This document shows, in pieces, positions 2,044-36,362 of a DNA stretch of 53,613 nt (within the stretch, counting starts at the first letter, position 1; each line of letters starts with the position of its first letter). Origin of the DNA: a virus (Duplodnaviria > Caudoviricetes); IMG/VR virus record IMGVR_UViG_3300042868_001142, positions 1 through 53,613 of that record; one strand, given 5' to 3'. Made by a program: the position numbers and the translations under genes. The notes under the pieces are model-generated. The model searched no databases. It was not told where the DNA came from and saw only the letters and a program-made list of their open reading frames with translations.

Positions 2044-2404
2044 TATGTGCTCGTGTTGTTGGGTGGGTTCGGTGCGATAGTGTCCTTGTTTCCGGTCGAG
2101 GTAGGCGTCTGGGTGTGTTGCCCTGAGTGGAAATCTGCAACTGAGAATTCCCGGTGGTCACCAGATAGTTGTCGCCAGCATTGAGCGGAAGGTCAGGACG
2201 AGGAAACCGAATCGTTATCCTCTCGGTTTTGCGTGCAGGCAACCGATAAGGGTCAAGCTGATCTGCGCAGCCCTCGTTGCACACCCGCAGGCCCGGAAAG
2301 TTTGGGTCGTTGCGCATCACAGCATGTGGCCGCTTTAACTTGCAGCGGTCACAAATCGCAATTGCGATGTCAGAGTAGCCCTCAGTGTCCAGAAAGATGG
2401 CCAT
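2027..2404 (-). CDS. Hypothetical phage protein with Cys motifs (CDRC...CNEGC); probable frameshift near 2115
   Basis: ORF track; TAATG coupling to the upstream endonuclease; an alternative frame ends at TAATG coupled to the fibre gene. Confidence 0.65.
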   Translation of the reverse strand: MAIFLDTEGYSDIAIAICDRCKLKRPHAVMRNDPNFPGLRVCNEGCADQLDPYRLPARKTERITIRFPRPDLPLNAGDNYLVTTGNSQLQISTQGNTPRRLPRPETRTLSHRTHPTTRAHNVRTS

Positions 2405-2931
2405 TAAACAGTCCTTCCTTGCGCAGCCAATGTGGCACGTCGAGACGCAACGCGCTTGGCAATCTGCTCAGGCGTCTGCTTGCTTCCTTTTTTCTTGGCC
2501 GATAACTTTGCGCGAGTTTCATCAGAAGATGGCACGCCTGCATTCGCGGGCGTTCTTCCAATCATCCAAGGCGTTGAACGAGACACACCCTTGAGTGGGC
2601 TGACATAACCTTCGCCACGAAACTTGGCCACAGGCGGCTTACCTCCGCCCATCACCAGATTCCAGCCAATTTCCTCTGCTGGGCGCAACTTGCTTTCAAG
2701 CTCATAGCAGTACGCCTCCTCCGCCACCACGACAACAGTTTTAATCAAAGAGTCCCAGCCGTGTTTTGCAATTGCATTGGACAAGCGAGGATTGTCGTGA
2801 CGACCTTTAGCATGCGCCCATTTGTGACCGTACAACCAGCGCTTATTGGCGTTTTTAGAGACGCCAACATACCCCTCAGACGTGATGTCAGAGTGGTGTG
2901 CTGCTCGTATCCAATAAACTTGGGCAATCAT
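2404..2931 (-). CDS. Free-standing GIY-YIG homing endonuclease with NUMOD3-like DNA-binding repeats
   Basis: VYWI...GYVGVS, RW..H, E..L, GWNL..GG; C-terminal SDETRAKLSAKKKG..QTPEQIAKR. Confidence 0.8.
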   Translation of the reverse strand: MIAQVYWIRAAHHSDITSEGYVGVSKNANKRWLYGHKWAHAKGRHDNPRLSNAIAKHGWDSLIKTVVVVAEEAYCYELESKLRPAEEIGWNLVMGGGKPPVAKFRGEGYVSPLKGVSRSTPWMIGRTPANAGVPSSDETRAKLSAKKKGSKQTPEQIAKRVASRRATLAAQGRTV

Positions 2932-5308: not shown

Positions 5309-6520
5309 TCAGCAATTCACCATGCCGCCGCGCTTTTTGGCGGGCGTCACAGTGACTGACTCTTTGGTCTTCGTGACGCTGTCAGCTTTGGGTGCAGAGG
5401 AGAACAGGTCTTTGGCCACGCTCTTTACTTTACCCATCACCTTGCCGGGGAAGCCACGGATGGACTTGGCCATATCCATTTCTTCCTTGCTCGGGCCAAT
5501 AGCTTTGTCATAAGCACCCTTGGAGAGGTCGCCGCCCTCAGCCATCATCTTTGTGGGGCCGTACTTCAGATTGCTCTGGGCCTTGGCTTGCTTCATTGCA
5601 GTGGCGTTCTCCTTGTTGAAGACCGCCTGCAACTTACGGTTGCCTGGGGCTACCTTGCCCCCCTTTTTGTAAGTACCGGCGAGTTCGTCGATCCTTACAG
5701 GCTTGGGGGCAGGCTTGTTGCCCTGGGGCATCGCGACGGCGCGGCCTGAATTAACAGACCCCCCCGCCGCGAAGGCTTTTTTTGCGGCACCACCTTTTTT
5801 GTAGGGTGAAGATCCACCCATGCCATCGTCCATCATGCCGCCGCCCATCATGCCGTCACCGGCCATGCCGCCACCCATCATGCCTTTGATCTTGCCGCCT
5901 TTTTTGTAGCCGCCAGCATTGGATTTTGCGACACCGCCAGTGGCGAAGCCACCAGCATTGCCCATCTTCACGCCGCCAGTTTTGGCAGGCGAGTGGTCAG
6001 GCTTGGCCGTGTCCATCTTGGTGTTGCGGTACTCGCCACCTTGTTTTTCGGTGTTGATGATGCCGCCCTTTTTGAAGCCACCCTGGCCGTTGACAACGCC
6101 ACCGGTGGCCAGACCTTTGTGGCCCTTTGAGGCAGGCTTGGACTCGTGAGACTTCAGTTCTTTCTCAAGACCTTTCATCTTCGACATCTCGGCCTTATGC
6201 ACAGACTTGGACTCGCCGCCCTTCTTCATGCCAGGAGTTGGCATGGCAGCCTGCATCTGAGCCGCGCCACCCACAGGACCGGCAGGGCCAGCACCAGCGG
6301 GCATGCCGCGCATTGCACGGCGGCGCATGGCCAGCGAGGGGGCCATAGGGCTGTTAGCGCCCATCATGCCGCCTCGGGCAGGCATACCCTGGGGCATAGC
6401 GCTAGGAGCGCCCATCATGCCGCCGCCAGCCTTTTTGACCACCTTGCCGCCTTTTTTGAGCTTCAGCTCAACTGAAGGCTCAGTGGTCTCCATCTTCACC
6501 ATCGGTTTGAATTGACCCAT
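5309..6520 (-). CDS. Low-complexity Lys/Gly/Met-rich protein with about 10 hydrophobic-[AK]-x-GG repeats
   Basis: LKKGG, MKKGG, LATGG, FKKGG, FATGG, YKKGG x3, FAAGG, MAEGG; strong SD AAAGGAG. Confidence 0.75.
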   Translation of the reverse strand: MGQFKPMVKMETTEPSVELKLKKGGKVVKKAGGGMMGAPSAMPQGMPARGGMMGANSPMAPSLAMRRRAMRGMPAGAGPAGPVGGAAQMQAAMPTPGMKKGGESKSVHKAEMSKMKGLEKELKSHESKPASKGHKGLATGGVVNGQGGFKKGGIINTEKQGGEYRNTKMDTAKPDHSPAKTGGVKMGNAGGFATGGVAKSNAGGYKKGGKIKGMMGGGMAGDGMMGGGMMDDGMGGSSPYKKGGAAKKAFAAGGSVNSGRAVAMPQGNKPAPKPVRIDELAGTYKKGGKVAPGNRKLQAVFNKENATAMKQAKAQSNLKYGPTKMMAEGGDLSKGAYDKAIGPSKEEMDMAKSIRGFPGKVMGKVKSVAKDLFSSAPKADSVTKTKESVTVTPAKKRGGMVNC

Positions 6521-7576: not shown

Positions 7577-8491
7577 TTACATGCCGGGCGTGCCGTACAT
7601 TGCGCGTGGGTCGGTAAACCCAGGAATGTAACGCTCGGTAGCCTTGTAGCGCATTGAGTCGGTCTCAAAATCGCCTTCCATGGTCTTCTCCAGCTTGCGG
7701 CGCATCATGAGCTTCATGCCTTCTGGGGCGTCGGTCTGCACGAAGAATGCCGTGGGGCTGGTCAGACGGCTGATCACGGCAGCGCCTTCGTCCAGCAAGC
7801 CGATAGACTTGACAGGGTTCAGGTCGTTGTTTGCCGTGCCTGAGCGCAGAACGCTCTTGAGCAGCACTTCGGCCTGGAAGACGTTGCCAGGAGCGACCAC
7901 CAGTTGGCGGGGCACCAGACGGATCTTCTTGCCGTTGTTGTCCACAGCCTGACGGATCTGGATCAACATCTGCTCCAGAGAAGTCTGGGACAGGTTGGCC
8001 GCAGTGGTCAACTGGTTGCTGAACGTACCGTTCACGATGGGGTGAGCAGTGTTGATCAGGGACACGCCGTCGCCGCCAGGAAACGCGCTGTTGAAAGCAC
8101 GGTTCAAGACGTTTGCGCACAAGGTCTCTTTGGTCTCAATCAGAGACTGAGCCAAGTGGCGAGCGTAAACCTGACCGATACGGATGTGGTCGCCGTCTTC
8201 AACCAGCACTTTGGTCAACGCGAAGGCCAAGCCAAACACGTTGTACACATAGCGCTGCAGGAACAGAACGCCGCCCTGCTGGTAGCTAACGGGAGTGCCG
8301 TCAGGCAACTGGGGGGCCGCGCCAAAACCGTACAGGACGGGTTCTTCGTGGTAGTTGCGGGGGATACCGTCTTGTTCGCGGAACACACGGCTCCACTCGT
8401 CGGTACGTTGGTCGTAGACTCCGTCGAAGCACTCGTTGAGGATAGGCTCAACGATTGACCGAAAGTCCGTACTGCGCATTGGTGCTGCCAT
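7577..8491 (-). CDS. Major capsid protein, module L (Bbp17/Mu gpT-like, HK97 fold)
   Basis: 304 aa; LYGFGAAP, FALTKVLVED, ARHLAQSL.ETKE, GGDGVSL...AHP, EGDFETDSMRYKATERY, DPRAMYG; optimised codons. Confidence 0.85.
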   Translation of the reverse strand: MAAPMRSTDFRSIVEPILNECFDGVYDQRTDEWSRVFREQDGIPRNYHEEPVLYGFGAAPQLPDGTPVSYQQGGVLFLQRYVYNVFGLAFALTKVLVEDGDHIRIGQVYARHLAQSLIETKETLCANVLNRAFNSAFPGGDGVSLINTAHPIVNGTFSNQLTTAANLSQTSLEQMLIQIRQAVDNNGKKIRLVPRQLVVAPGNVFQAEVLLKSVLRSGTANNDLNPVKSIGLLDEGAAVISRLTSPTAFFVQTDAPEGMKLMMRRKLEKTMEGDFETDSMRYKATERYIPGFTDPRAMYGTPGM

Positions 8492-11184: not shown

Positions 11185-11327
11185 TTTTTCTTCGCCTGTG
11201 ACAGACCTCCTGACTGCTTGGTTGGGGTGGAACCCTTCATGCTCTGGCCGTCAATCGGAACGCCCATTGCCATACGCTTGTGCTGGGGCACATTGATGCT
11301 CTTTTGCTCTTGGTCACTCGTAGCCAT
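11181..11327 (-). CDS. Small hypothetical protein (48 aa, MATSDQEQ...)
   Basis: SD AAGGAG before ATG 11327; overlaps the portal stop. Confidence 0.5.
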   Translation of the reverse strand: MATSDQEQKSINVPQHKRMAMGVPIDGQSMKGSTPTKQSGGLSQAKKK

Positions 11328-13866
11328 AACGGTCTCCTTGGGTTGATACAGCCTTGGTTTGCTCGAAGTTGAGCTTTGCCGCATCGCGTGTTAAGCGGGC
11401 TGTCTCGATGCGTTCTTTCATCTTTTGGTCGCTGGTGGCGATAGCCAACTTCAATTGAAGCTCTTCCATCGCCTCCTGCTGGCTCTGTTGCAGCTTGGCC
11501 ATGTCCAACTGGATCTTGGCTGCAAGCTCTTTGTCCTTGAGGCCCATCTCTGCCTCGTCGCGCTTGGCACGGCGCTCGGTCTCGGCCATGCTGGTGTCCA
11601 GCAGAACCTTGGTGTCCGGTGTCATCTGCGGCTGGGGCTTGAATTGCTGCAAGCCCTGCATCAGTTGCTGGATCACAGGCAGGATTCCCTTGAGCGTCTG
11701 GTCAGCGTCCATCTCAACGTGCTGTGACGCCAAGGCATACAGCTTGTCCACCGCTTTGGGATCGGCCTGCAAGTCGTAGTCTTCCAACTTTTCGCCCATG
11801 GCCTTTTGCACATAGCCCGTCATGCGGTTCAAGTACCACAGCACGATGTGCTGTTTGATGTGTTCGACCGACTTGGGCAGGTAAGCGGGCGCAATCATGG
11901 GGTTGCTGCCAAAAATCGGACTCTTTGCAAAGTCCAAGTGGGCCTGGATGTGGCCGAGGTGGTCCTGCTCTGGGTACGCGAAGGCAGCCTGACCGATGGC
12001 CATGGACACGTTCTCGTTGGCTGCGTCCATCTTGACCGGCGCAGGCACGTCGACCATGATTTCGTTGATGCCGGGCACTTTGATCTGCTTCAAGAAGCGG
12101 GTGATGACCACTTTCTTGTTGAAAAGCTCAGGGTTGTCCTTCATAACGGCCATAACCGCCTGGGTCTGGGCCATCCGCTGGGTTTCGCTGAAGATGTGCG
12201 GGTCAGAGACGGGAATAACGTCTGTCACGCGGGCAAAATCCTCCCGCTTGATCTCCAAATCCTCCACCACCTCGCCGCGCTGCATGTCGTCCAGATACCA
12301 GCGGTTGATTCGGCTCAAAACGCGCAGCACGCGGCCCTGAGACTCGTGTAAACGGGCGTGAATGGATGAGAAAACAGCCGCGCCCTGCTCAATCAGCGCC
12401 TGGGTGGTGCCAACTGGGGTGTTGCTGTTGACATCGGCAATCTTTTCTTCGGCGGTGGTCACCACACCCTTGGCGGCGCTCGTCAACCAGCCCAAAAGCT
12501 GGAAAAGTACCGGCGATGGAGGGTTGAACGGCATCGGCATGGCAATCTTGCGCACGTCGTCAACCCCCGGAGCGCCTTCAATCTCCACAACCTGGGTCAC
12601 TTCGATCTCTTGAGATTGGCCAGAGATCTTGCCGCCCTTGAGCTTCAGGAGCGTCGCAGCGTTGTTGATGTGGGCTGAGTCCAGCAAGGCCCGCAAAGCG
12701 CCTGTAAGGGCCGCTGAAAGCCCTCCAATGAGCTGCGGCAGGCCAACTGCGTATGCCCCACGCCATGGGATGAACTTGAACTCAATTACCCAGTCCAATT
12801 TGGTGTAAGTGTCGTCGCCTTCTTCCCAATTTCGGTACAGGCCGATCACGTCGGTCGACAGGTCGTCGATCATCAGGATGTACGGGGCCATCTCACCCTT
12901 GGTGACAGGGTCGTCCTCCAGTTCCAGCCATGTGTAGATGTGGTACACCCGGCGAACAGCGTCTTCGTTGTCGTTCTGGGACTTGCCTTCGATCTTGTTC
13001 GTGGCCTTTTGCGCCCCAGTCATCTCTGGGTCCATCGTGGCGCGAGACAAAACCGTGTCGCGGTACAGGCCAGAGTCAACGCGGCGCTTGTAATCCCAGT
13101 CCGATATGTCTTCAACCTCGGTAAAACGCTCTGCGGTGTAGAAATTTCCCGCCGCAAAGGGCAAAAGCACGTTGTCGATGGGCAAGAACTGAGCGCAAGG
13201 ACGGCGTTTTTTTTGGTCGTACCAGAGTTTGAGGTACTGCGACCCGCCCAAAGGCAACTGGGTCAGCATCTGCTCTTGCTCGTCGCGGAATTCCTCGATC
13301 TGCTCGGTCAACTGCCAGTTCATGAAATCGCGTTTGCGCTCGGCAATCGTCGTCTTGTCCTCAGTCACGTCGCCCAGGATCTTGGTTTTGGTCGGGCCGT
13401 CAGGCGGAAACATCTCCTTGATGGCCCTGGCCGCAAAGTCGATACAAGTCTCAGCCATCACGGGGTGAACCACCTTGGACGCACCGTTGAAGTTCGCACC
13501 GCCTGGGGCATCGTTGCCCATTCCAGTGCGCTTGATGCCCTCCTCGTACTGCTTGTCACGCTGCTTGCGGGCGTCCTTGTCCTTCTCGACAAGCTCAATG
13601 TAGCGCAGGGCAAGCGCTCCCAGGTCGTAATCCTGAATCAGGTCGCTGTCGGACAAGTTTTGGTAGAAGTCCTCGTCCTCCATCGGCCCCTTGGTGTCCA
13701 GGGTGACCACTACAGAGCCGTCAGGAAGCTCCTCAAGCTCAGAGTCCAGCAAGTCAGGCATGTCGACGACCTGGGCCACCTCCTCGCCACCGGCCTCCTC
13801 GTCTTGGTTGGGATTGCCGTCAATGAAGCGGTTGAACTCTGGGTCTATTGGGAATTGCGTGGCCAT
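11314..13866 (-). CDS. Portal protein, module L
   Basis: 850 aa; GASKVVHP, FPPDGP, FMNWQLTE, PVGTTQALIEQG, PVSDPHIFS; C-terminal coiled coil; synteny. Confidence 0.8.
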   Translation of the reverse strand: MATQFPIDPEFNRFIDGNPNQDEEAGGEEVAQVVDMPDLLDSELEELPDGSVVVTLDTKGPMEDEDFYQNLSDSDLIQDYDLGALALRYIELVEKDKDARKQRDKQYEEGIKRTGMGNDAPGGANFNGASKVVHPVMAETCIDFAARAIKEMFPPDGPTKTKILGDVTEDKTTIAERKRDFMNWQLTEQIEEFRDEQEQMLTQLPLGGSQYLKLWYDQKKRRPCAQFLPIDNVLLPFAAGNFYTAERFTEVEDISDWDYKRRVDSGLYRDTVLSRATMDPEMTGAQKATNKIEGKSQNDNEDAVRRVYHIYTWLELEDDPVTKGEMAPYILMIDDLSTDVIGLYRNWEEGDDTYTKLDWVIEFKFIPWRGAYAVGLPQLIGGLSAALTGALRALLDSAHINNAATLLKLKGGKISGQSQEIEVTQVVEIEGAPGVDDVRKIAMPMPFNPPSPVLFQLLGWLTSAAKGVVTTAEEKIADVNSNTPVGTTQALIEQGAAVFSSIHARLHESQGRVLRVLSRINRWYLDDMQRGEVVEDLEIKREDFARVTDVIPVSDPHIFSETQRMAQTQAVMAVMKDNPELFNKKVVITRFLKQIKVPGINEIMVDVPAPVKMDAANENVSMAIGQAAFAYPEQDHLGHIQAHLDFAKSPIFGSNPMIAPAYLPKSVEHIKQHIVLWYLNRMTGYVQKAMGEKLEDYDLQADPKAVDKLYALASQHVEMDADQTLKGILPVIQQLMQGLQQFKPQPQMTPDTKVLLDTSMAETERRAKRDEAEMGLKDKELAAKIQLDMAKLQQSQQEAMEELQLKLAIATSDQKMKERIETARLTRDAAKLNFEQTKAVSTQGDRYGYE

Positions 13867-13879
13867 GTTTTTTCCTTGA

Positions 13880-16800
13880 TCAGTCGTGGCAGCCGCACAA
13901 CTTGTTTACTGTAGACAGGCCGCTGACGGTTCCGCCAGCTTTAAAACCTTCGCGGATTAAATGGCGAATGTATGGGTTGTTAAGTTCTTGACTCGGCAAG
14001 CCCTCACCCTTGACGCCAAGTGCGAGATCGTAATATCCCGGACCCTTACGGTCAGGGTTGGCCTTCTTAAATCTGCTATGCCACTCAGGCAAGTACACCT
14101 CGGTTGGTGTTGGAATCATGTTTACGCCCAAGTCCTTGCCGCTGATCAGCGTTGGGAAGCCTGGGTGCAAATCTGGGCGGTACTCAGACATGGGGTCCAT
14201 TTTGAATAGGCGTGGACCAGCCGCAAATGTAGGAGCACTCCCGCCATGCTCAGGATGCAGCAAACCCGGCTCAGTCTCACGCTTGAGAATGTCCGTGGGC
14301 TTGAAGATTACACCCTTGCCGCTCTTCTCGCCACCGAGGGCTACGCCACCCTTGCCGGGTGCGATACCCTGGCCCATCATCAGGTCAGCCAAAGCCGCAC
14401 GCTTCTCAAAGGTGTCGGCTTCTTTCCAAATCTTGGGGTCGCGAATTTGAGCGCCTTCACCAAAAGTCAGTGCAAGGTTGTGATTGATTTTGGCCTCCAA
14501 CTCAGGGCTAAGATTGCCCGCTTTCATGGATTCCAAGAAGCCCTTCTTGAGCTTGTCAAAAACTATGGGGTTGGTCTTGAGTTGGTTCGCCGAGCCAAGC
14601 ATGGTGGTCCATGCGGTCTCTGGATCTGTTAGGTTCTTCAGCCGGGCAGCCGTGCCCTCATCCATCACGCCCCAGACCTTGCCAGCGTAAGCCGGGTCAA
14701 CCTCAGAGATCGCTGAGAACGGTGCGCCACCAATGTTGCCACCACCCACGCGGGTGCGGTCAGCCTGCGTTGTGGTGGTTTTCTTAAAGCCTTTCTCCAT
14801 CGCTTGACCTAGCGCCTCAGATGCCTTGACCGGCGGCTGAGACTTGATCAACTCTGCGGCCTTCCTGCCAGCAGCGGCGCGTTCAGCGGCGGTCACCTCC
14901 TGGGCGGCGGTGTCAGCGCCGGGCTTCAGCAGCTTCTTCAGCACCTCTTTCATTGCCCCACCGCGAGCCATCTTGACGGGGCCGCCAGCCTTCATGCCTT
15001 CTGGGGGACGACCAGCCATCTCGTTCAAGAAGTCCATGCTCGGGCCAGGAGTGGGTGGGGGCATTTGGGATTTAAGGGCGTCCTCCCATTCGGCACGGGT
15101 CATGTATGGCTGAATTCTTCCTGCTGCCTTAGCCTTTTCAAAGGCTGCATCGCGCTCTGCCTTGGTGGCAACAAAACTTTCAGGCATGAAGTTGACGATG
15201 TCTTTTGATGAGTACAGCCCAGTGTTGCCAAGATCACCAACGTCCGACCACTTGCCGCCACGGACAAAATCTTGAACAAAGGGCAGGTACTGTTCGTTGG
15301 GGGCGCGGTTCTGCTTGCCTTTGATCTGGACGATCTTGTTTTCAGTTGCATTCAAAAGCTCTGGCGCTTCAGCCTTTAAGAATTCAGGCCAACTGTTAAA
15401 ATATTTGTTTCTGTTTTCGCTGTATTTTGCGTACAGATCAGGCAAGTTTTCTTTTGCATATCGAGACTCAAGATTTGGGTTGTGTGGCTGCGCCTCCACC
15501 GTCACATGCGGCTCACCCTTGGCATCACGCAGGCTGAAGATGCGGCTCTTGCCCTCCAGCACGTCAGGGCAGTAACCACCAACGCAGTGGCCCATCGTCT
15601 CGCCTTCGTATTTGAGGGCGTCTTCAAGAGCCTTGTGCTGACCTGAGATGCGGATGGCCTCCGCCTTTGTCTTGGCCCAACCGATGTCTTCTCCGTTGGG
15701 GCCGACGATGTCAAACCCTCCAGCCTTCGGCTCAAGCGTGACGCCGCCAGTAAGATCCTTCGGCGGGGCCAACTCAATCCACTTGTACCCCTCTGGGTAC
15801 TCCTTGTGGACAGGCATGCCCTCGGTCATCTTGATCTGCGCCTCGCGCATCTTCTTGGCCATCTCTTGGTCAAACTCACTGGTGCGGCGTACTGCCTGCT
15901 CCATGCTGACCTTGCTCAACTGCTCGGGCGCGATGCGTCCAGCAGCAACGTCTTGACGCAGAACATCCATGATGTGGTCAAAGCCAAAATTGCTGGGATC
16001 AAAGTTTCGCTCAAGACTATAAACTTTTGATTCTGGATCAAGTTTTTCAAGCCAGGGATACTGTTCTTTTTTTGATTCTGCCTCGGCAATATTGCCTGAA
16101 ATACTATTTTGTTTTTGATAGGACGGATCAATTAACTCTTTAACAGAACGAGGAGTTATTGCAACATCCGTAGCGTCCTCCCATGCTTTTGCAGCCCCAG
16201 ATATTCCAAGTTGTTCAGTTTTATTTTGCCTACGAAATCGTGGCGCGGCAATATTATTTATACCCACCTGATCCGGAGCAATGTGAAATATGTGGTTAAG
16301 CGCAATTTCATACTCTGACTTTGCTTCATTCATCATAGTCTGAGCTTGACGAGTCAAATTCGCCTTGCGCCGTGGGTCAGTCTCTGCTGCCGCTCTATCA
16401 GCCATCTTCTGAGCGCGTTCTTCGTCTTTGGCATACTTGCCTTCAATTTCAACCTGACGCTTGTCAATCATCAACCGCACTGGGTCTTGCGGCGTTGCCA
16501 TCTCATTTTTGACGTAGCTGGTCAAGTTGCGGTCAATCCACTGATTGAGGGCATCTTGTTCGCGTAATTCACGGAATGACATTCCCTGCCCAAAGCCAAT
16601 GTTCTGGTCTGCTGCCTCCGCAAGTCTTGTCTTTAACGGCTTCAAGTTTTTCTCTATGCTACCCGTCAGCCAGTTCCCGCCCTTGGGCTTGATCACGCGA
16701 GGGGCAGCAGCAGCCGATGCCTTGGCAAACTCCTGCGCACCGTGCTTGATGGCCCCTGGAAGCGCTCCAACGGCCCTCAGAGGCGATCCAGGCCCCAAGT

Positions 16801-18688
16801 AGAACCCACCGGCCAACTGGCCAGCCCCGGACGCTGCACGGCTTACAGGAGCCTCTGACCTGAACGGCAGGCGCTTCTCAATGTCCTCTGACGTTGGCAG
16901 GAATGTCGGGGAATCCTTGCCGGTGATCAACTCATACGGCAGCCGGGCAAATGACTCGATGTCGCCAGGAGCACCAAGCACGCCAGAGACAAAGCCACGA
17001 GCCAGATCCACCGGCACATTTTTGGCAGCCTCGGGATCTTGCTTGCTGCGGCGAGGCTTCATCTGCGGGAAGACGCCAAAGGCAGCGCCACCCTTGTCCA
17101 TGTGGACATCACCACCAGCGGCCTCGTTCAGGTCGGGCTTGTTGGTGTCGTATGTCCCCTTGTTGCCGATGGCCGACTTGACCGCACCCGGCTTGTAGGA
17201 CACCACCTCGCTCAGGTCGCCGTCGCGGTACTGCATCAGGCCATCGTAGCCGGCCGCTCGGGCGCGGGACTCCACCTCTTTGCCGATGTAGCCTTTGTTC
17301 TCGTAGGCCCGCTCCACCATACTGGCGGCCTTGTCCTCATCGATCCCGAGCTTGATCAGCGCCTCGATCATCGGGTCGCCCTTGCCCTCGATGACCAGCG
17401 GGTTCTTGATCTGGGCATAGACCGGCAGCATGTTGCCGCCCACCTGACCCTCACGGATTGTGCCGCTGGCACGGTCAGCCATGAACTGGTCAGCCATGCT
17501 CTTTGCAGATGGATGACCCGCCATCAGGGAGATCGCCTCATCGTTAGGGATGCCGCTGTAGCCGCTTGCCTGCGCTGCTTTCGGCGTCAGGTAGGTGCCT
17601 GAGCCGAGCGATCCCTCTTTGCTGGGCCTGATGTTTCGGATGGCCTCAGCGCCCTTGCCGCCCTCGGTGGCCGTCGTGCCGTGATACAGGCGCATGGGCG
17701 TCTTGCTCTCAGCCAGCATCTTCTGAAGGTTGGCCTCACGTTGGGCAGCAGGAAGCACCTCCTGCGTTCCCTTGAGGCTCTTGAGCAGCCTAGAGATACC
17801 ACCAGCCTGCATCCCAACCTCACCGCCCTCGGCGTAGATGTCAGGCAGCCGAAGAACATTAATGTTGTCCTCACCAATAACCATTCGGTCTTTCAGGTCA
17901 AGCTCTTTGCGTAGTGCCTCAATGAACTCCTCCCTAGAACGACGGGGAAGCTCTTCACGCAAGCCGCCACTCGGATAAATGTTGACCAAGCTCGATGGCT
18001 CACCCATTTCCGCCAGAGCGCGACTTCTGTGCCTGCCCTCATGACCCCTCACATTCGGAAACATCGGTAGGCCAGTTTCATCCTTGTAAAGGGTGAGATA
18101 TGGCACCTCATCAAACCCGCCTTGCACTCGCATCAGGTGCTGGATGTACTCATCGGTTGGAACGGTGTACTTGTCAATTTGTCCCCGCTTTGCCAGTTCA
18201 GCCGCCTTGGGGCCAATGTCAGCGCGAGTGCGCTCTTCAAGTTTTTTGGCAAACTTCTCAAAGTCGGCAGGGTTCATGGTCACCAAAGCCTTGGCGTTGT
18301 CGCCAAGAAACAACTCTCTGAGCGCCTCCGGCTTGTACAGCCTTTCAATGTTCTTGACCTCGTCAGCAGCGCGTTGCAATCGCTTTGCGCCGTACTGCCC
18401 AGACTTTTGAGCCACCTCAGCCTGAAACTCACTGAGCCTGCTTGGAACAACGACAGCGGGGGCTTCTTTGGCGGTCTTGGCGGCTTTGAGCAGCTTGGAG
18501 ATCCCTCCAACCTGCATGTGAACGTCACCACCCTCAGCGTACTGCTTGACCTTGCGATCCCACACATGCTCCCGCCCCTTGTACTGGAGCGGAACACCAC
18601 CACCAGCCATCGCCCATTCCTGAAAAGACTGCTTCTTGGAAACCGAATCGGTTCCGCTTGGCTTTGACTTGGGTTTATTGATGGCCAT
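13880..18688 (-). CDS. Polyvalent multidomain protein (ParB-like, ADP-ribosyltransferase, PcfJ-like and unknown domains) with GG linkers
   Basis: GHEGRHR; YHGT...GSGTYLT...GYDG...EVV...KSAIGN.G.YD; EGETMGHCVGGY...IFSLRD..G.PHVTVE...QIKGKQN; AGAAAGG upstream favours start 18688 (track start 18721). Confidence 0.75.
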   Translation of the reverse strand: MAINKPKSKPSGTDSVSKKQSFQEWAMAGGGVPLQYKGREHVWDRKVKQYAEGGDVHMQVGGISKLLKAAKTAKEAPAVVVPSRLSEFQAEVAQKSGQYGAKRLQRAADEVKNIERLYKPEALRELFLGDNAKALVTMNPADFEKFAKKLEERTRADIGPKAAELAKRGQIDKYTVPTDEYIQHLMRVQGGFDEVPYLTLYKDETGLPMFPNVRGHEGRHRSRALAEMGEPSSLVNIYPSGGLREELPRRSREEFIEALRKELDLKDRMVIGEDNINVLRLPDIYAEGGEVGMQAGGISRLLKSLKGTQEVLPAAQREANLQKMLAESKTPMRLYHGTTATEGGKGAEAIRNIRPSKEGSLGSGTYLTPKAAQASGYSGIPNDEAISLMAGHPSAKSMADQFMADRASGTIREGQVGGNMLPVYAQIKNPLVIEGKGDPMIEALIKLGIDEDKAASMVERAYENKGYIGKEVESRARAAGYDGLMQYRDGDLSEVVSYKPGAVKSAIGNKGTYDTNKPDLNEAAGGDVHMDKGGAAFGVFPQMKPRRSKQDPEAAKNVPVDLARGFVSGVLGAPGDIESFARLPYELITGKDSPTFLPTSEDIEKRLPFRSEAPVSRAASGAGQLAGGFYLGPGSPLRAVGALPGAIKHGAQEFAKASAAAAPRVIKPKGGNWLTGSIEKNLKPLKTRLAEAADQNIGFGQGMSFRELREQDALNQWIDRNLTSYVKNEMATPQDPVRLMIDKRQVEIEGKYAKDEERAQKMADRAAAETDPRRKANLTRQAQTMMNEAKSEYEIALNHIFHIAPDQVGINNIAAPRFRRQNKTEQLGISGAAKAWEDATDVAITPRSVKELIDPSYQKQNSISGNIAEAESKKEQYPWLEKLDPESKVYSLERNFDPSNFGFDHIMDVLRQDVAAGRIAPEQLSKVSMEQAVRRTSEFDQEMAKKMREAQIKMTEGMPVHKEYPEGYKWIELAPPKDLTGGVTLEPKAGGFDIVGPNGEDIGWAKTKAEAIRISGQHKALEDALKYEGETMGHCVGGYCPDVLEGKSRIFSLRDAKGEPHVTVEAQPHNPNLESRYAKENLPDLYAKYSENRNKYFNSWPEFLKAEAPELLNATENKIVQIKGKQNRAPNEQYLPFVQDFVRGGKWSDVGDLGNTGLYSSKDIVNFMPESFVATKAERDAAFEKAKAAGRIQPYMTRAEWEDALKSQMPPPTPGPSMDFLNEMAGRPPEGMKAGGPVKMARGGAMKEVLKKLLKPGADTAAQEVTAAERAAAGRKAAELIKSQPPVKASEALGQAMEKGFKKTTTTQADRTRVGGGNIGGAPFSAISEVDPAYAGKVWGVMDEGTAARLKNLTDPETAWTTMLGSANQLKTNPIVFDKLKKGFLESMKAGNLSPELEAKINHNLALTFGEGAQIRDPKIWKEADTFEKRAALADLMMGQGIAPGKGGVALGGEKSGKGVIFKPTDILKRETEPGLLHPEHGGSAPTFAAGPRLFKMDPMSEYRPDLHPGFPTLISGKDLGVNMIPTPTEVYLPEWHSRFKKANPDRKGPGYYDLALGVKGEGLPSQELNNPYIRHLIREGFKAGGTVSGLSTVNKLCGCHD
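18641..18653. promoter_or_regulatory. Palindrome AACCGAATCGGTT, operator-like
   Basis: perfect 6+1+6 inverted repeat; same core at 21637..21651. Confidence 0.35.
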
Positions 18689-18736
18689 GCTCGTCGCCTT
18701 TCTGAGGTATGACGCCATCATAAACGGTGAGCTGTG

Positions 18737-18940
18737 TCAAGTCCATCCTTTGAAGTCTCTGAGAATCTGGGGCATCTCGCGGTATCCCCGGCAGTGCTCA
18801 AGGAAGTGACCCACCTGATCGGGGATCTCCTTGTCAACGTAAGGGTAGTCCTTGCACCAGATGTCAAGCAAGATCTGCTGACCCTTGGTCAATCCTTGCT
18901 CGTCACTAATCTCGTCAAGCCACTCTCTTGTTACCTGCAT
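18737..18940 (-). CDS. Small hypothetical protein
   Basis: 67 aa with SD-like AGAGG. Confidence 0.55.
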   Translation of the reverse strand: MQVTREWLDEISDEQGLTKGQQILLDIWCKDYPYVDKEIPDQVGHFLEHCRGYREMPQILRDFKGWT

Positions 18941-19194
18941 TTGATGCCTCTGGTGGTGAATGTTTGAGCAAAGCGTAGCCTTACCGTGGTCAAGACCAAA
19001 GTTCGCTCTACGCCTCGACGATCCTCTGTATGGAGCCAGTCGTCGCTTACGCTATCCCAGACTTGTTTCAACCGCCCGGCTCTGGGAATTCGCCCACCGC
19101 CCCTGCTATGGCTTGCTCGTGTCACAGGGTTTTTTAAGACTCCACCACCGACGTGCCGCATGATGTCCGAGTCACCGAAGAAAAGTCCAGACGT

Positions 19195-19317
19195 AAAAAA
19201 GCCGCTTACAACTGCGCCCGGTCGGAGCCTTGCCAAATGACCCTCCCACAGAGAGCATTTGGTAAGGCGGGACGCATGTGTAAACGGCCTCAATTTCGTC
19301 GCCTCCGACAGCAACGA
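19195..19317 (-). ncRNA. Structured RNA resembling c4/CI-type antisense elements
   Basis: 88-nt interrupted hairpin 19201..19288 ending in U6; upstream 8-bp hairpin 19296..19317 whose GUCGGAG is complementary to a bulged CUCCGAC. Confidence 0.55.
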
Positions 19318-19338
19318 CTTGTTTGTACCACAGCCAGA

Positions 19339-20757
19339 TCAGATTGCATAGGGGTTAACCCTTCTGACACGTCCGGTATCTGCAAAGTCGTCCTCATCCC
19401 AGTCCTCATCAGGCGGCGGGTCGATGTCCAGCCACCCGGCATCCCGCAGATACCGCAGGGCCTGGGTGCAGGCGTCCACGAGGTCGTCGTGGGTCGTCTC
19501 AGGGAAGCTACAGATCTGGCTGACGAAGCCCTCGGCCCAGTCCTTGACGTAGCCCTTCCTGTGGTCAGACTCAGGAATCCACACCCGGCCACGGGCGATC
19601 ACGTTGGACACAATGTTGAGGCGCTGCATCTTGTCAGCCCTGCCAGGGTTGTACGCCCTCACGGGCAGGTGGGCACGCTGCAAGTCTTGGATCAGCGAGA
19701 TGCCAGCCGACTTGTCCTCGATCAACAGCAGGTCCACCCGCTTCCTGTCCTTGCCCTCACCGAAAATGGTCTCGTACTCCTCAATGACCTTGGGACGCAA
19801 GTCAGGGTATTGCAGCCTCTCCTGCCAGCAGTCGATCACCATGGCGCTCATAGGCCCGTCCTGGGGCTTGAAAACGCCAAAGGTGATCGAGGCCGTCGGA
19901 TCGTTCTGCACCTTCTCGCTGGTGGCAACGTCATACGATTGCAGGATGTACTCAAACCTGGGGAAGGGACGCCCTGCTGGCCAGAGCTTGAACATCTCCC
20001 GCTTGACGATGCCGCCCTCTTCGGGGTCGATGATCTCAGCGTAGATCTCCTGCCTGCCCAGCTTCGTGCCCTCGTAGGCCAGGATCTGCTTCCTGAAGTT
20101 GTCGGACAAGTTCTTGAGGTTGGCGTAAGTGGAGGCGGTGGTCAGCACCACATCGTCACCCTCCCGGCCCATCAGATCAATGATCAGATCCTTCGGCCTG
20201 GGCGTGGTCGTGACAATCATGCGGGTGCGCTTGCCCAGGCGCATGCCGAATTGGATCTGGTCCCAGGCTTCTTGGATGTACTCCCAGGCGGCAAGCTCGT
20301 CGCACCATCCACCGTGGAACTGCGGCCCCCGGAAGCGCTCAGGCTCGGATGCGGGGATGCCCTTGATCAGCGATCCGTTGGTCAGGCGCAGTTCGTGCGC
20401 GGTCTTGTTGTAGTCGGCCACCAGTGACTTAGGGATGATCGTCATCAAGCCAGAGTCACCCTCAAAGCAGGTAGCCCTCACGTCAGCCGACGTAGGAGCC
20501 GCCACAAGCCATCGAGTCCCAGGCTGCTCATACGCCCACCAAGCAATCTGCTCCGCCGCTGTACGGGTCTTGCCAGCCCCACGGCCAGCCAGCATCAGCC
20601 AGATCGACCACCAGTCCCCAGGCGGGAGAGTCTGGTGGGCATGCTGCGTGGAGAACCAACTCATCCTCCAGGCCCACGCAAGCCGGTACTCAGGGCTGGC
20701 CAGCGCGAGATACTTCTGCGTCTGGGGGTCAGCCATGACCTCGGCCATGTCACTCAT
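19339..20757 (-). CDS. terL: Terminase large subunit, module L
   Basis: Walker A AGRGAGKT, Walker B GWCDE, TTTP, nuclease SYD...IEDK...HDDLVDA. Confidence 0.93.
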   Translation of the reverse strand: MSDMAEVMADPQTQKYLALASPEYRLAWAWRMSWFSTQHAHQTLPPGDWWSIWLMLAGRGAGKTRTAAEQIAWWAYEQPGTRWLVAAPTSADVRATCFEGDSGLMTIIPKSLVADYNKTAHELRLTNGSLIKGIPASEPERFRGPQFHGGWCDELAAWEYIQEAWDQIQFGMRLGKRTRMIVTTTPRPKDLIIDLMGREGDDVVLTTASTYANLKNLSDNFRKQILAYEGTKLGRQEIYAEIIDPEEGGIVKREMFKLWPAGRPFPRFEYILQSYDVATSEKVQNDPTASITFGVFKPQDGPMSAMVIDCWQERLQYPDLRPKVIEEYETIFGEGKDRKRVDLLLIEDKSAGISLIQDLQRAHLPVRAYNPGRADKMQRLNIVSNVIARGRVWIPESDHRKGYVKDWAEGFVSQICSFPETTHDDLVDACTQALRYLRDAGWLDIDPPPDEDWDEDDFADTGRVRRVNPYAI

Positions 20758-21352
20758 TCGCGTCCACTTGCTTGGTCAGCTCAATGTTCTTGAGGAGAGT
20801 CGCTAGATAAGTGTCGGCCTCGGACTGGACCTCAATCCTCAGCGGGTTCTCAGCGTCACCACCCAAAGCCAGCTTGTCGCCGTACTTCTTCGGCTTGAGC
20901 TTCATGGCCGTCCACTTGCGGGCGTCAATCCGCTGCTTCTGGTAGGCCACATACCCCGAGTCAATCTTGATGTCGAGCACATTCCCCTCGCTGTCCCGGA
21001 TCTCGTTGGTGCGCGGGTTTTCGTCGGAAATCGCAATGATTTCGTCGGCCAACGTGTCAGCCTGTTCTTCACGGGCGCGTGCGTATTTGTCGCAGAAGGC
21101 GGGTTGCTCCAACAACCACCGGTAAACAGTCGCCCTATTTGGCATCCCCTCTGTCTTCACGATCTCCTTCAGGCTCTCCCCCTCAGCCAACCGTATGCAG
21201 ATGATGTCAGCCATCTGTGTGGTGTAGGTTGACCTGCCTACCTGCTTTGGAGCCTTAGAGACGTTTTCTTGTGTGGCAGCACCCTTGGCCTTAGTCTTAG
21301 GCTTCGGGGCTGCTGTAGCTCGTTTTGATGGCTTTGCGGCGGTTTCTGGCAT
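20750..21352 (-). CDS. terS: Terminase small subunit, module L (Sf6 gp1-like)
   Basis: ICIRLAEGESL..I...MP.RATVYRWL, YARAREEQAD, RIDARKW...KL.PKKYG; SD GAGG favours start 21352. Confidence 0.85.
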   Translation of the reverse strand: MPETAAKPSKRATAAPKPKTKAKGAATQENVSKAPKQVGRSTYTTQMADIICIRLAEGESLKEIVKTEGMPNRATVYRWLLEQPAFCDKYARAREEQADTLADEIIAISDENPRTNEIRDSEGNVLDIKIDSGYVAYQKQRIDARKWTAMKLKPKKYGDKLALGGDAENPLRIEVQSEADTYLATLLKNIELTKQVDANE

Positions 21353-21395
21353 GACCGTAGTCCTCGTCCGTTTAGATGAGGCGGATGTTACCAAG

Positions 21396-21611
21396 TTACT
21401 CGCCGTCGAGCGGGTGGCTAATCTGCTCAGGTGGGCGGTACTGCTCAATCTTGGTTCCCTCAGACAACTCACGAACCAGATCATCCTGGGTTGCGACGTG
21501 AATGTTGAACTCGCCGTTTGCAACGTGGCTCAAGGCTTGCTGACGAAGACTGGCTTTAACGAGGCGAGTGCCCTGTTGGCTGCCGTAGACGATGTAGATG
21601 CGTTCTGCCAT
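21396..21611 (-). CDS. Hypothetical protein (MAERIYIV...)
   Basis: SD AGGAG before ATG 21611; upstream of terS. Confidence 0.65.
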   Translation of the reverse strand: MAERIYIVYGSQQGTRLVKASLRQQALSHVANGEFNIHVATQDDLVRELSEGTKIEQYRPPEQISHPLDGE

Positions 21612-23507: not shown

Positions 23508-23680
23508 GCGGTCACCACTTGTTGCAGTGCAGCAATCAGTTCCTTCGCCTGCTCGTGCGTCAGCACGGTGGCGACGTTGCCGTGCCTAACGTACAGGCTC
23601 AGCCACACGGTGTCTTTGTCGTAGCGGTTGACAAAAACATTCGAGCCTTCACGGCCATTGATTTGAAATCCATCGTCCAT
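23504..23680 (-). CDS. Hypothetical protein, first gene of the leftward operon
   Basis: SD GGAG before ATG 23680; L..EQAKELIAAL motif. Confidence 0.6.
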   Translation of the reverse strand: MDDGFQINGREGSNVFVNRYDKDTVWLSLYVRHGNVATVLTHEQAKELIAALQQVVTA

Positions 23681-23710
23681 AGGGTACTCCAGTTGATTGA
23701 GGGAGCCGCG

Positions 23711-23760
23711 ATCATAACGAGTAAAAAACTTTCGCGCAACAACTTTTTTCGTGCTATGAT
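23711..23760. promoter_or_regulatory. Back-to-back sigma70 promoters with overlapping -35 boxes
   Basis: leftward TTGCGC(23739-34)-17nt-TATGAT(23716-11); rightward TCGCGC-17nt-TATGAT(23755-60) with an extended-10 TG. Confidence 0.65.
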
Positions 23761-23788
23761 GGTGGCTCAACAACTACAGGAGCGTACA

Positions 23789-24904
23789 GTGCAACACTCA
23801 AACATCGTCGGCGGCTCTACAGCCAAGCGCGTGATCGCGTGCCCCGGCTCGGTGAAGCTGGTGCAAAAGATGCCGCCGCAGCCGTCGAGCGTCCACGCTG
23901 ATCGCGGCACGATGCTGCACGACGTGATCAGCCGCATCCTGCTCGACCAAGGCGTCATCATCGGCCAGTACAAACACAAAGACCAACTACTCACACAGGA
24001 GCTTTACGATGAGAAGATTGCACCTGCCTTGGACGCGCTCGACGAGATCGATCCCTACGGTCGGCTGGTATACGAGGTTGAGACACGGGTTGGCTTCGGC
24101 GACCTTTTGCCTGGAGTGTTTGGTAGCACTGATCTTGTTGGTCGTATCGATCATCGCGCTATCGTCCTTGATTGGAAGTTTGGCGACGGTGTTGTTGTCG
24201 ATGCTGTAGAGAACGCGCAACTGATGTTCTACGCGGCAGCGGCCATGCGTACCGATGACCTGAAGTGGGCCTTCGAGGGTGCCACCGAGATCGAGTGCAT
24301 CATCGTGCAGCCGCCAGCGATCAGGCGCTGGGTGACGACCGTGGGCCGCATCAAGCAGTTCGAGCACGAGCTGGTGTCTGCGGTCAAGACCGCGCTGCGC
24401 GATGACGCGCCGCTGGCGCAGGGCGACCACTGCCGCTGGTGCGCGGCCAAGCCGATCTGCCCGCAGATGACCGGCGCTGTCGATCGCGCACTGAAGCAGC
24501 AATTGATCAACTTGGATGTTGACACGCTTGGCCGGTATCTGCACAATGCCGACCTCTTGGAGGAATGGATCAAAGACTTGCGTGCGCTGGCTTTCGGGAT
24601 GCTTGAGAAGGGCGTTAACGTGCCCGGCGTCAAGATCGTCCAGAAGCAAGCGCGGCGCAAGTGGACCGATGAGAGCAAAGCCAAGCAGGCGTTGCTCTCA
24701 CTCGGTCTGAAAGAATCTGTCGTCGTCGAGACTACGATCATGTCCCCGGCGCAGGCCGAGAAGGCGCTCAAAAAGCGCTTTAGCGAACTGCCCGAGGACT
24801 TGATCAAGTCCGAGTCGTCAGGTACGACGCTCGCCCCGGAGGATGACCCCCGGCCAGCGGTGCAGTCGTTTGTCGGGCTGTCAAAAGCCCTTTCTAAACT
24901 GTAA
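23789..24904 (+). CDS. Cas4-like PD-(D/E)xK exonuclease (DUF2800-like)
   Basis: HS..GGS.A.R..CPGS, GT.LH, GSTD, VLDWKFG, QLMFYA, C-terminal HCRWC.AK..CP; GTG start after AGGAG. Confidence 0.85.
   Translation: MQHSNIVGGSTAKRVIACPGSVKLVQKMPPQPSSVHADRGTMLHDVISRILLDQGVIIGQYKHKDQLLTQELYDEKIAPALDALDEIDPYGRLVYEVETRVGFGDLLPGVFGSTDLVGRIDHRAIVLDWKFGDGVVVDAVENAQLMFYAAAAMRTDDLKWAFEGATEIECIIVQPPAIRRWVTTVGRIKQFEHELVSAVKTALRDDAPLAQGDHCRWCAAKPICPQMTGAVDRALKQQLINLDVDTLGRYLHNADLLEEWIKDLRALAFGMLEKGVNVPGVKIVQKQARRKWTDESKAKQALLSLGLKESVVVETTIMSPAQAEKALKKRFSELPEDLIKSESSGTTLAPEDDPRPAVQSFVGLSKALSKL
24009..24209 (+). CDS. Candidate overprinted small membrane protein (+1 frame of the Cas4-like gene)
   Basis: AGGAG-7nt-ATG; basic N-terminus and about 33-aa hydrophobic C-terminus; host codons locally T-ending. 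Confidence 0.55.
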   Translation: MRRLHLPWTRSTRSIPTVGWYTRLRHGLASATFCLECLVALILLVVSIIALSSLIGSLATVLLSML

Positions 24905-24914
24905 TGGAGTTCAC

Positions 24915-25550
24915 ATGTCTAATCTCGTAAAGTTCTCTGGCGCTAACCTGCCTTCCGTCACTTCCCTGTCCACCGCGCTGCGTAGCATCGCCACCGACGT
25001 TGGTGCCTCGACCACGGCCATCATCAAGATGGACCGCACGGGGCACTGGGTCTTCGGCGCTGACCAGACCGAGGCCGAGGCCGACGCAACTTGGGCTGTC
25101 AATCCCTTCTCCTTCGTCCACGGCTTCATCGCCTGGGGCGACGGCGAGGTGCTTGGCGAGAAGCTGGTGCCTGTCACCGAGCCTCTGCCCGAGTTGGAGG
25201 CCGCGCCTCACGGCGCTAAGAAGGGCTGGGAGCCGCAGACGGGCCTGAGCCTGAAGTGCATCAGCGGCGAAGACGCCGGCATGGAAGCGCGGTTCACCAC
25301 CACCAGCGTCGGCGGCCGCAAGGCCGTGCAGGCTCTGGCTGTGGAGATCGCCGCGCAGGTTGAGAAGGACCAGTCCAAGCCGGTGCCCGTCGTCAAGCTG
25401 GGTAAAGACCACTACACGCACAAGAGCTACGGCCGTATCTATACGCCGGTGTTTGAGGTCGTGGAGTGGGTCAGCATGAATGGCGAGGCTGATGAGGCTG
25501 CGCCTGAGGCCGCGCCTGCGGCTGGCCGTCGTCGCCGCGCTGCGGTGTAA
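24915..25550 (+). CDS. Putative single-stranded DNA-binding protein
   Basis: between nuclease and polA; Y.HKSYG.IY.P.F motif; SD GGAG. Confidence 0.7.
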   Translation: MSNLVKFSGANLPSVTSLSTALRSIATDVGASTTAIIKMDRTGHWVFGADQTEAEADATWAVNPFSFVHGFIAWGDGEVLGEKLVPVTEPLPELEAAPHGAKKGWEPQTGLSLKCISGEDAGMEARFTTTSVGGRKAVQALAVEIAAQVEKDQSKPVPVVKLGKDHYTHKSYGRIYTPVFEVVEWVSMNGEADEAAPEAAPAAGRRRRAAV

Positions 25551-25556
25551 TGTAAA

Positions 25557-25585
25557 AGGGCGGGGCCGAAAGGCTCCGTCTTTTT
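25557..25585 (+). terminator. GAAA-tetraloop intrinsic terminator
   Basis: GGGCGGGGCC-GAAA-GGCTCCGTC followed by TTTTT. Confidence 0.7.
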
Positions 25586-25587
25586 CT

Positions 25588-25887
25588 ATGCTGGACGAAG
25601 ATCGCATAGACGCGATTTCAAACGCTATCGCTGAAATCGAGTCGGGTATGTTGGATGTCACCACTATCCTTGGCACTGAAGTTTCGCTGGTTCACAACAG
25701 TGTTTTGCGGAACTTAGAAGAACACGAGTTCAAGTACTTTGAACTGAAAAAAGTACTGGATAAGTTAGACGCCTTAACGCTGGAGTTGTACCGCGTTAAG
25801 AAAGGGTTCACTCCTTCAAAAGAAGATGTGGAGCTATACAAAAATTTTCGCAAAAACGCCATACGCATTTTGCAAGGTAGGCTATGA
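25588..25887 (+). CDS. AT-rich inserted hypothetical protein (moron-like, 99 aa)
   Basis: composition differs from neighbours; ATGA overlap with polA. Confidence 0.55.
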   Translation: MLDEDRIDAISNAIAEIESGMLDVTTILGTEVSLVHNSVLRNLEEHEFKYFELKKVLDKLDALTLELYRVKKGFTPSKEDVELYKNFRKNAIRILQGRL

Positions 25888-27809: not shown

Positions 27810-27833
27810 AAACGCCCGGTTGCAGCCGGGCGT
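27808..27833. terminator. GC hairpin between polA and primase
   Basis: ACGCCCGG-TTGCAG-CCGGGCGT preceded by an A run (U tract on the minus strand). Confidence 0.5.
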
Positions 27834-27853
27834 CTTCACCAAAGGAGCTACTG

Positions 27854-33066: not shown

Positions 33067-33480
33067 TGGGGTCATGGATTGTTGCGGTTTGGTCGTGTTG
33101 GCGAGGCGAGATGACCCATGATCGTCTCCAATAGAAATGGGGTCTGTTGGGTCAAATTGTCATCTAGAGTATAGGTAATAGTAAGAGAGAGATATATTGT
33201 ATACAGTATGGTGTACAGCCTCGACTGCACCGGCGCCGCCAGCCGCCGCAAAGGGGGTCGCTTAACTTCAACTCGGTGACAAAATGACCTAAATGACCCA
33301 AAGCCGCCCGGCCCCCCTTGCCCGTTGGGTCATCTGGGTCATGGCCCGGTCATGACCCAAATGACCCAAGCCTTGCGCCCAGGTGCTAGCCAGCCGATCA
33401 ACCTTGAGCCGCGTGACAAACTGACCCAAATGACCCAAAGCCCGTGACCGGCCGGCCATGTGAGTGAGTGCCCACTGACC
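33067..33480. repeat. Iteron-like (A)TGACC(CA) repeats in both orientations; candidate origin or packaging region
   Basis: more than 10 copies, often as 10-nt-spaced pairs, e.g. ATGACCCAAATGACCCAA and TGGGTCATCTGGGTCAT. Confidence 0.75.
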
Positions 33481-36360: not shown

Positions 36361-36362
36361 CT

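Follow-up and report, generated by a model that had tools for sequence, protein, structure and literature searches.

What joins the parts of a many-domain phage protein, and what do the joints themselves do? The question is raised by a gene in IMG/VR virus record IMGVR_UViG_3300042868_001142 (Duplodnaviria; Caudoviricetes), a stretch of 53,613 nucleotides (nt) that we analysed over its whole length and call the window. The gene is a single open reading frame (ORF) of 1613 amino acids (aa), and its product had been described, in an original prediction made from the letters alone, as a polyvalent protein built of cassettes with a double-GG linker between them. Our analysis agrees with that description: ART-PolyVal and PcfJ domains are both found above their gathering cut-offs, and the cassettes lie between linkers. 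We find a protein of a known kind, a polyvalent protein, in which both the junction code and the core domain are conserved and new. The explanation that we favour, and hold to be probable, is a polyvalent cargo protein of independently folding, exchangeable cassettes, encoded in a head-assembly operon and joined by junction units at which cassettes have been gained, lost or swapped. The gene and its parts, in the order of the protein, are the following, (-) denoting the minus strand.

13880..18721 (-), gene of the polyvalent cargo protein, a single ORF of 1613 aa by translation
18548..18721 (-), S0, N-terminal leader, aa 1-58
18494..18547 (-), linker 1, aa 59-76, core 18503-18532, found by regular expression, 27.1 bits with the motif hidden Markov model (HMM)
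17846..18493 (-), S1 cassette, aa 77-292, putative divergent ParB/Srx-like fold from weak fold matches, alignment A2
17789..17845 (-), linker 2, aa 293-311, core 17798-17827, 24.5 bits with the motif HMM
17135..17788 (-), S2 cassette, aa 312-529, ART-PolyVal ADP-ribosyltransferase (ART) domain by profile (PF18760)
17075..17134 (-), linker 3, aa 530-549, core 17087-17116, 24.8 bits with the motif HMM, recombination junctions relative to the related loci L001 and L075
15005..17074 (-), S3 cassette, aa 550-1239, made up of hydrophobic S3a (16682-17074) and of S3b with a PcfJ-like stretch (15446-15622)
14948..15004 (-), linker 4, aa 1240-1258, core 14957-14986, a hybrid of two L001 linkers
13952..14947 (-), S4, conserved core domain, aa 1259-1590, about 340 aa, outside known families
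13883..13951 (-), terminal half-unit EGFKAGGTV (13925-13951) and a 14-aa tail, closing S4

The four double-GG linkers are present at the positions originally predicted. A regular expression for GG-x-V-x-M-x-x-GG matches the translation at aa 64-73, 299-308, 536-545 and 1246-1255, whereas composition-preserving shuffles (n = 5000) hold 0.0048 copies on average and one at most, none of the 5000 reaching four. The final FKAGG (aa 1593-1597) is equally real, and as a half-unit it closes the C-terminal domain in the listed relatives too. Across the family, the GG-6-GG pattern occurs in 88 of 121 proteins, and 163 unique proteins yielded 131 unique motif instances with the consensus [Y/K/M/F]-A-x-G-G-[E/A]-V-[H/R/K]-M-x-x-G-G. 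At a score of at least 4 bits, the motif HMM gives 322 matches in real sequences and 0 in shuffled ones. The junction motif is real and family-wide; our full-text literature searches, together with term searches in the main texts of PMC5512222 and PMC10172136, found no description of it.

The motif is itself composite. From weaker motif-HMM matches and from the sequences that follow S4 we deduced an elementary unit, PHI-[A/K]-x-G-G-x-V, in which PHI is M, Y or F; two of them at a spacing of 8 residues form the compact linker. Many relatives instead have arrays of two to four units, spaced by about 24 residues with a short helix in between. In the window protein, every cassette closes in a unit (YAEGG, YAEGG, EAAGG, MKAGG and FKAGG), and S4 does so at all 121 sites listed and in 93 of 122 more distant cluster representatives. 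The segments behind linkers 1, 2 and 4 (ISKLLK.., ISRLLK.. and AMKEVLKKLLK) had been taken for short amphipathic basic helices. Their net charge of +2 or +3 and their helical hydrophobic moment of 1.46-1.58, close to or above the 95th percentile of the protein's 14-mers (1.47), are in line with this, but the AlphaFold models give these segments a predicted local distance difference test score (pLDDT) below 50.

Because the motif contains a near-invariant Met (114 of 131 instances), with Gly-Gly codons 9 nt upstream of it that in some copies read GGTGAT- or GAGG-like, one might read it as nucleic acid signal and not as peptide, namely as an internal translation start with a Gly-Gly-encoded Shine-Dalgarno sequence that would yield nested products for each cassette. 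Codon usage speaks against this. GGA and GGG are depleted at the motif glycines, at 11% compared with 25% at other glycines (164 versus 4452 codons), which is the reverse of a Shine-Dalgarno constraint. In addition, the conservation of the Val and of the second Gly-Gly is at the level of the residue, and the N-termini of proteins that start with S4 do not begin at that Met. We rejected internal starts on codon usage and N-termini, and consider them very improbable.

The linkers had been expected to mark domain boundaries, and they do so. Of 611 internal breakpoints in BLASTP alignments with the window protein, 388 fall within 10 aa of a linker, although these zones make up 9.7% of the length. 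Searched as a whole against Pfam (expectation value, E, <= 0.01), the protein matches ART-PolyVal (aa 341-523) and the PcfJ-like family (aa 1034-1092) only. For S2, the profile evidence agrees with the predicted ADP-ribosyltransferase: PF18760 scores 53.6 bits with the segment (E 5.5e-14) and 46.5 bits with the whole protein, the gathering cut-off being 31.2. The block described as hydrophobic plus PcfJ-like, our S3, is also as predicted, with PF14284 at 1.6e-9 and 36.6-38.2 bits (gathering cut-off 25), a match that covers only profile positions 75-135 of 147. S3a and S3b are found separately in relatives, and further homology breakpoints are seen around aa 670-680 and 1160-1170. When the whole protein was compared by tblastn with 50,697 phage records, a single record matched, over the PcfJ-like part only. 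The leader S0, present in 24 of 162 relatives, takes the first position in all 11 architecture classes that have it.

The ParB-like label given to S1 is plausible, and here sequence and structure differ. Sequence offers nothing for it: the region aa 74-298 has no Pfam match even at E <= 10, and the profile of alignment A2 found no ParB or Srx, nor anything else useful, among PDB sequences. The predicted structure (pLDDT 87.5), on the other hand, gives consistent but weak ParB/Srx fold matches. VIA returned 18 chains at Z of at least 2, nine of which we judged to be of ParB/Srx type from their titles and a reading of the fold. The best of them are weak (Srx, Z 4.5, root-mean-square deviation (rmsd) 4.2 over 84 residues; Osa, Z 3.9), as is the best Foldseek match, PadC (E 0.064). 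Alignment A2 contains an invariant GHEGRHR loop, which may correspond to the Gly/Arg-rich active-site loop of the ParB/Srx family. S1 is distinct from the ParB_N cassette of relatives, which sits elsewhere in those proteins.

S4 is the most conserved part of the protein, with a mean column identity of 72% over 30 loci (alignment A1), and a profile search recovered 444 cluster representatives at E <= 1e-3. As foreseen for the C-terminal domain, it belongs to no recognised family: Pfam gave nothing at E <= 10, Foldseek gave nothing in the PDB at E <= 0.001, and tblastn against the same 50,697 phage records gave no match, so that no cultured phage there has the domain. The S4 model has a pLDDT of 81, the C-terminal half-unit being disordered in it. 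In BFVD, S4 matches uncharacterised phage proteins only, some of which are annotated as PcfJ-like, LT_GEWL lytic transglycosylase or NAT_SF acetyltransferase-type. The best VIA match, PH1033 (Z 6.4, rmsd 3.6, 130/143 residues), is below the tool's trust level; further matches to YTH, EVE and McrB-N chains (Z 3.5-5.8) form a coherent PUA-like set (ASCH/YTH/EVE). From these models it is possible that S4 is a PUA-like barrel with a helical insert. A separate idea, that S4 serves as an anchor to the portal, we doubt, as L036 and L010 retain 80% identity in S4 against only 28% in the portal.

If cassettes are exchangeable, homologues should differ in content and order, as had been predicted, and they differ widely. 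Of 8000 scored candidates, 956 proteins belong to the family at E <= 1e-3. Among 120 listed proteins, lengths run from 900 to 2451 aa, and the Pfam content of the family varies (ART-PolyVal, PcfJ, ParB_N, LPD23, GDSL lipase and several domains of unknown function). The six segments of the window protein occur in 41 orders or combinations among 162 relatives, S4 in 144, S3b in 101, S2 in 65, S3a in 59, S1 in 51 and S0 in the 24 already mentioned; S4 may be N-terminal, internal or C-terminal. Cutting the proteins at their units and clustering the pieces by single linkage produced 76 clusters, 50 of them singletons, a procedure that merges unlike cassettes and so gives only a rough sign of diversity. 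At some loci the array is split into two or three adjacent genes, the products of which still end in a unit. At L017 (1613-1616) a lone in-frame stop stands right after the Gly-Gly, where other relatives have Glu, and the frame runs on into an 878-aa ORF; this stop could be a sequencing error, a site of read-through or a real split.

Footprints of such exchange can be read in the DNA. Over S4 and portal, locus L001 and the window share about 95% identity, and L001 shows two clean cassette differences. The first is at linker 4, which is a hybrid of two L001 linkers: its left 50 nt are 96% identical to L001 2588-2637, its right part tracks L001 from 3323, and the crossover falls in a shared stretch of 14 nt (14958-14971), L001 having 699 extra nt, a cassette, between its two linkers. 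The second is at linker 3, where L001 has an extra cassette of 579 nt flanked by a 23-nt direct repeat (one mismatch; D-L-N-K-A-G-G) that is present as a single copy in the window. At the same linker, L075 shares 93.6% identity with the window through the ART cassette up to the first Gly-Gly, after which an S1-type cassette follows in L075. The crossovers of these three recent indels or swaps lie within linker coding sequence, so that the predicted role of the linkers as microhomology for domain shuffling has direct examples; as a general rule it fared less well, the systematic enrichment being only about 2.3-fold.

In the explanation that we favour, each cassette would end in PHI-[A/K]-x-G-G-x-V, and a second unit, M-x-x-G-G, would head the next, the two together making the double-GG linker. 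The junction would act as an in-frame joint and hinge for the gain, loss and swap of cassettes, with short repeated junction sequences recombining and selection then retaining intact modules. As capsid cargo, the protein would reach the host by ejection, and its ART, ParB/Srx-like, PcfJ-like and S4 modules may act there early in infection. The cassette-and-shuffling interpretation is well supported. Nevertheless, several observations weigh against the explanation as a whole. In a systematic nucleotide test on 77 unique genes, in which an abrupt end was the end of a block at >= 85% identity, only 15 of 148 abrupt ends fell in linker zones (6.5 expected, p 0.002), and an earlier version gave 17 of 176 (7.3 expected); since small indels are scored as abrupt ends too, this criterion is noisy. 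It is nonetheless clear that crossovers also occur outside junctions. Most recent DNA breakpoints lie elsewhere, and so the clustering seen at the protein level may owe more to selection for intact domains than to a mechanism of recombination. The full double-GG linker is absent from 71 of 163 unique family proteins, many of which hold spaced single units. Furthermore, PHI, V and M are conserved as peptide even though portals may be only 28% identical; a mere hinge would not need that, and something else probably reads the motif. Finally, the place of the protein in virions is a prediction, and no cultured phage among the 50,697 records has S4.

The neighbourhood of the gene bears on its packaging and on what might read the motif. 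Its main members are these.

20750-21523, terS, upstream of terL
19339..20757 (-), terL, terminase large subunit (Terminase_6N and Terminase_6C), the upstream neighbour
11314..13866 (-), portal protein, the downstream neighbour (phrog_1216, 9.3e-14; portals of named phages match)
7577..8491 (-), HK97-type major capsid protein, 304 aa (Phage_capsid_4), hypothetical reader of the unit
5309..6520 (-), P0133, Gly/Met/Lys-rich head-module protein of 403 aa with 10 copies of the unit and no family match

As the original prediction had it, the gene lies between terL and portal, with terS, terL and portal flanking it. An alternative ATG at 18688, the start used in that prediction, would give 1602 aa; it has AAGG 9 nt upstream and a better ribosome-binding context than 18721. 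Beyond the portal follow a GroES-like gene, a gene for a coiled-coil scaffold-like protein of 311 aa, two small genes and the capsid gene. PDB profile and sequence searches with the 311-aa protein gave coiled-coil rows only, and the ESM Atlas returned unnamed viral clusters only for this protein and for P0133. Among 53 related loci, terL is upstream in 49 and the portal downstream in 38, and in the 7 of the 15 portal-less loci that were inspected the contig stops shortly past the gene; wherever the contigs permit a view, the gene always comes after terL and before the portal. Distant portal relatives (Caulobacter phage RW, Roseobacter phage CRP-901 and Pelagibacter phage HTVC023P) lack the gene or hold only a small one there, which makes it an accessory insert at the terL-portal junction. 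The 617-nt gap between terL and the polyprotein gene (18722-19338) contains a TTG-started ORF of 127 aa (18931-19314), with no family match and with no homologue among the 53 loci or in G001, a complete relative of 55.5 kilobases. No transfer RNA was found within the whole window.

From gene position and from the literature we infer that the polyprotein is loaded into the virion. Iyer et al. 2017 (PMC5512222) ties phage polyvalent proteins to portal-terminase systems, regards them as likely capsid-packaged and proposes their processing by metallopeptidases. The window protein resembles those proteins in having several effector domains per polypeptide, ART-PolyVal included, in its phage portal-terminase neighbourhood and in its mosaic architectures. 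It differs from them in that the zincin-like metallopeptidase domains through which processing is proposed there are absent here. The main text of that paper does not contain the words 'linker', 'glycine' or 'PcfJ', and the junction unit, S4 and the unit-rich partner P0133 are not described in it. The MuF and SPP1 gp7 head proteins, as described in the same text, likewise tie effector domains to a conserved head-associated domain beside the portal gene; in contrast, no Phage_Mu_F match was found in the whole window protein (Pfam, E <= 0.01), and the predicted fold of S4, a possible PUA-like barrel, is different. Another parallel is offered by the cargo proteins C1 and C2 of Bacteroides phage crAss001 (gp45 and gp46), which, according to the main text of PMC10172136, were located in the virion by mass spectrometry and cryo-electron microscopy, bind the portal wing, and leave the virion, in which they are stored, before the DNA and partly unfolded. 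They, too, are large segmented proteins with disordered joints (PMC10172136), but they show no sequence similarity to the window protein, whose packaging is only inferred. The terms 'cleav', 'glycine' and 'linker' were not found in the text of PMC10172136.

The linkers had also been proposed to be processing signals. On that account cleavage at the Gly-Gly pairs, or between them, would make the product a genuine polyprotein, whether the cuts are made inside the capsid or follow ejection, and P0133 would be a scaffold-like protein chopped into peptides. Candidate sites are indeed present between all cassettes and shortly before most C-termini, and with its many sites P0133 is reminiscent of core proteins broken down in the course of maturation. 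Several viral cysteine proteases, for example adenain and the African swine fever virus protease, cut at sites of the type Gly-Gly-X, which we counted in favour of processing. No protease family was found among the 14 head-module proteins of the window (E <= 1), and in G001 a scan of 54 of the 61 called ORFs found none except an endolysin-type Peptidase_M15_4; the other seven ORFs are five short ones on the plus strand and two, the polyprotein's among them, that cross the borders of the fetched stretches. Moreover, the capsid protein consists of no more than the HK97 fold (304 aa), and the coiled-coil scaffold-like protein has a gene of its own, a combination typical of protease-less assembly. 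The claim of processing is thus not borne out, and we consider it unlikely, though a host protease or an unrecognised one could still act. The internal proteins and Alt of phage T4 form an instructive comparison, as they carry an N-terminal capsid-targeting sequence that is cleaved by the gp21 prohead protease. There, effectors including an ADP-ribosyltransferase are loaded via a short peptide signal, as they may be here; the T4 signal is single and N-terminal and its protease is known, whereas in our family there is a unit at every joint and no protease was found.

The sequence patterns point to a unit that, in addition, is recognised as a peptide and may serve as a handle for loading into capsids. 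In a rival explanation it would chiefly be a cargo-loading or docking tag that acts with the basic helix or the tail. It would bind some conserved part of the virion, the likeliest candidate being the HK97-fold capsid protein at its inner face, and any tagged cassette would be encapsidated. Conservation of the motif at the peptide level across lineages with portals 28-98% identical is in favour of such a role. So is P0133, which has no cassettes and yet holds 10 units (shuffle mean 0.27; 0 of 5000 shuffles reach 10). It accompanies the polyprotein in seven of the eight genomes with enough sequence (the window, L001, L004, G001, G002, G004 and MW202545), with no match found in G003. In MW202545, the protein between terL and portal has 890 aa, four units and no detectable S4, and the fetched stretches of RW, CRP-901 and HTVC023P hold no protein with two or more units. 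The last unit is <= 30 aa from the end in 181 of 238 unique family C-termini (median 16 aa), and the stand-alone products of split loci end in one as well.

The capsid protein would fit a conserved reader. Of 598 candidate stretches, 594 were confirmed as relatives; the protein is 90-100% identical in the best 80 loci, has a mean identity of 94% in alignment A3 and is still 77% identical in Caulobacter phage RW. Among these loci are contigs in which terL is only about 58-69% and the portal about 61% identical. Such extreme conservation could stem from strong constraint or from a gene sweep. Encapsulins provide the analogy: PMC8229669 and PMC10960027 describe HK97-like shells whose cargo is loaded through targeting peptides, short and terminal, that follow a flexible linker and dock the cargo inside the shell, a putative likeness to the unit. 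Encapsulins are, however, cellular compartments with one tag per cargo.

That difference is also an argument against a loading tag, since one tag per protein would suffice for loading and yet there are tags at every joint. Nor are the tails behind the last unit uniform. Six recurrent types (GGLTAMSR-like, 34; Cys pairs as in the window, 21; AYD..ID.I.N.F, 13; DT[MQ]..EL, 12; GG.IT.DDL, 12; DP.IKQII, 8) account for 100 of 239 unique C-termini, leaving 139 outside any type; the recurrent types may be separate signals. The disorder of the C-terminal half-unit in the S4 model is a further point against, and in crAss001 gp45, a proven cargo, PHI-A-x-GG occurs twice where about 1.4 are expected, near chance. 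Weighing these, we regard a role mainly in loading as a doubtful possibility. A bolder form of the same analogy would make PHI-A-x-GG-x-V a portable 'load me' code, read by the capsid protein or another conserved head component, with flanked cassettes encapsidated and freely exchangeable and P0133 as a multivalent partner. We think this rather unlikely; if true, it would amount to a plug-and-play cargo system like that of encapsulin targeting peptides, inside a tailed phage. Exchangeable cassettes joined by junction units remain the explanation that we prefer.

Some features of the record stand apart from the polyprotein. The part from 21700 to 53613 resembles a different phage, with a second terL (34094-35623), a P22-type portal (36357-38543), genes for scaffold, capsid, head closure, ejection proteins and tail fibres, and DNA polymerase, primase and exonuclease (23519-30169). 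Collinear homologues in G001 exist for every ORF examined at 181-21523 except three, compared with only one 72-aa match beyond 21700; probably, the record is either a mosaic or the product of chimeric assembly. A 30-nt direct repeat occurs twice in the region ahead of the second terL (33276-33305 and 33413-33442; 93% identical, 137 nt apart). A homing-endonuclease-like ORF at 2404-2931 (-) (phrog_314, 7e-17) lies between the adaptor gene and the next structural gene and has no counterpart in G001. G001, for its part, has a beta-ketoacyl-synthase-like gene (L101:12756-13871) among its tail and internal-protein genes.

Polyvalent proteins are thought to carry the first-strike enzymes of phages into the host. 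To the questions of how they are loaded and how their domains turn over so fast, the family examined here supplies a defined junction peptide, DNA footprints of cassette gain, loss and swap, and a partner protein made almost only of the unit. Its core, S4, is an abundant and very conserved phage domain, seen in environmental sequences only. With more than 950 relatives and 444 S4 clusters, the family is a natural library that makes encapsidation, cleavage and the plugging-in of cassettes testable.

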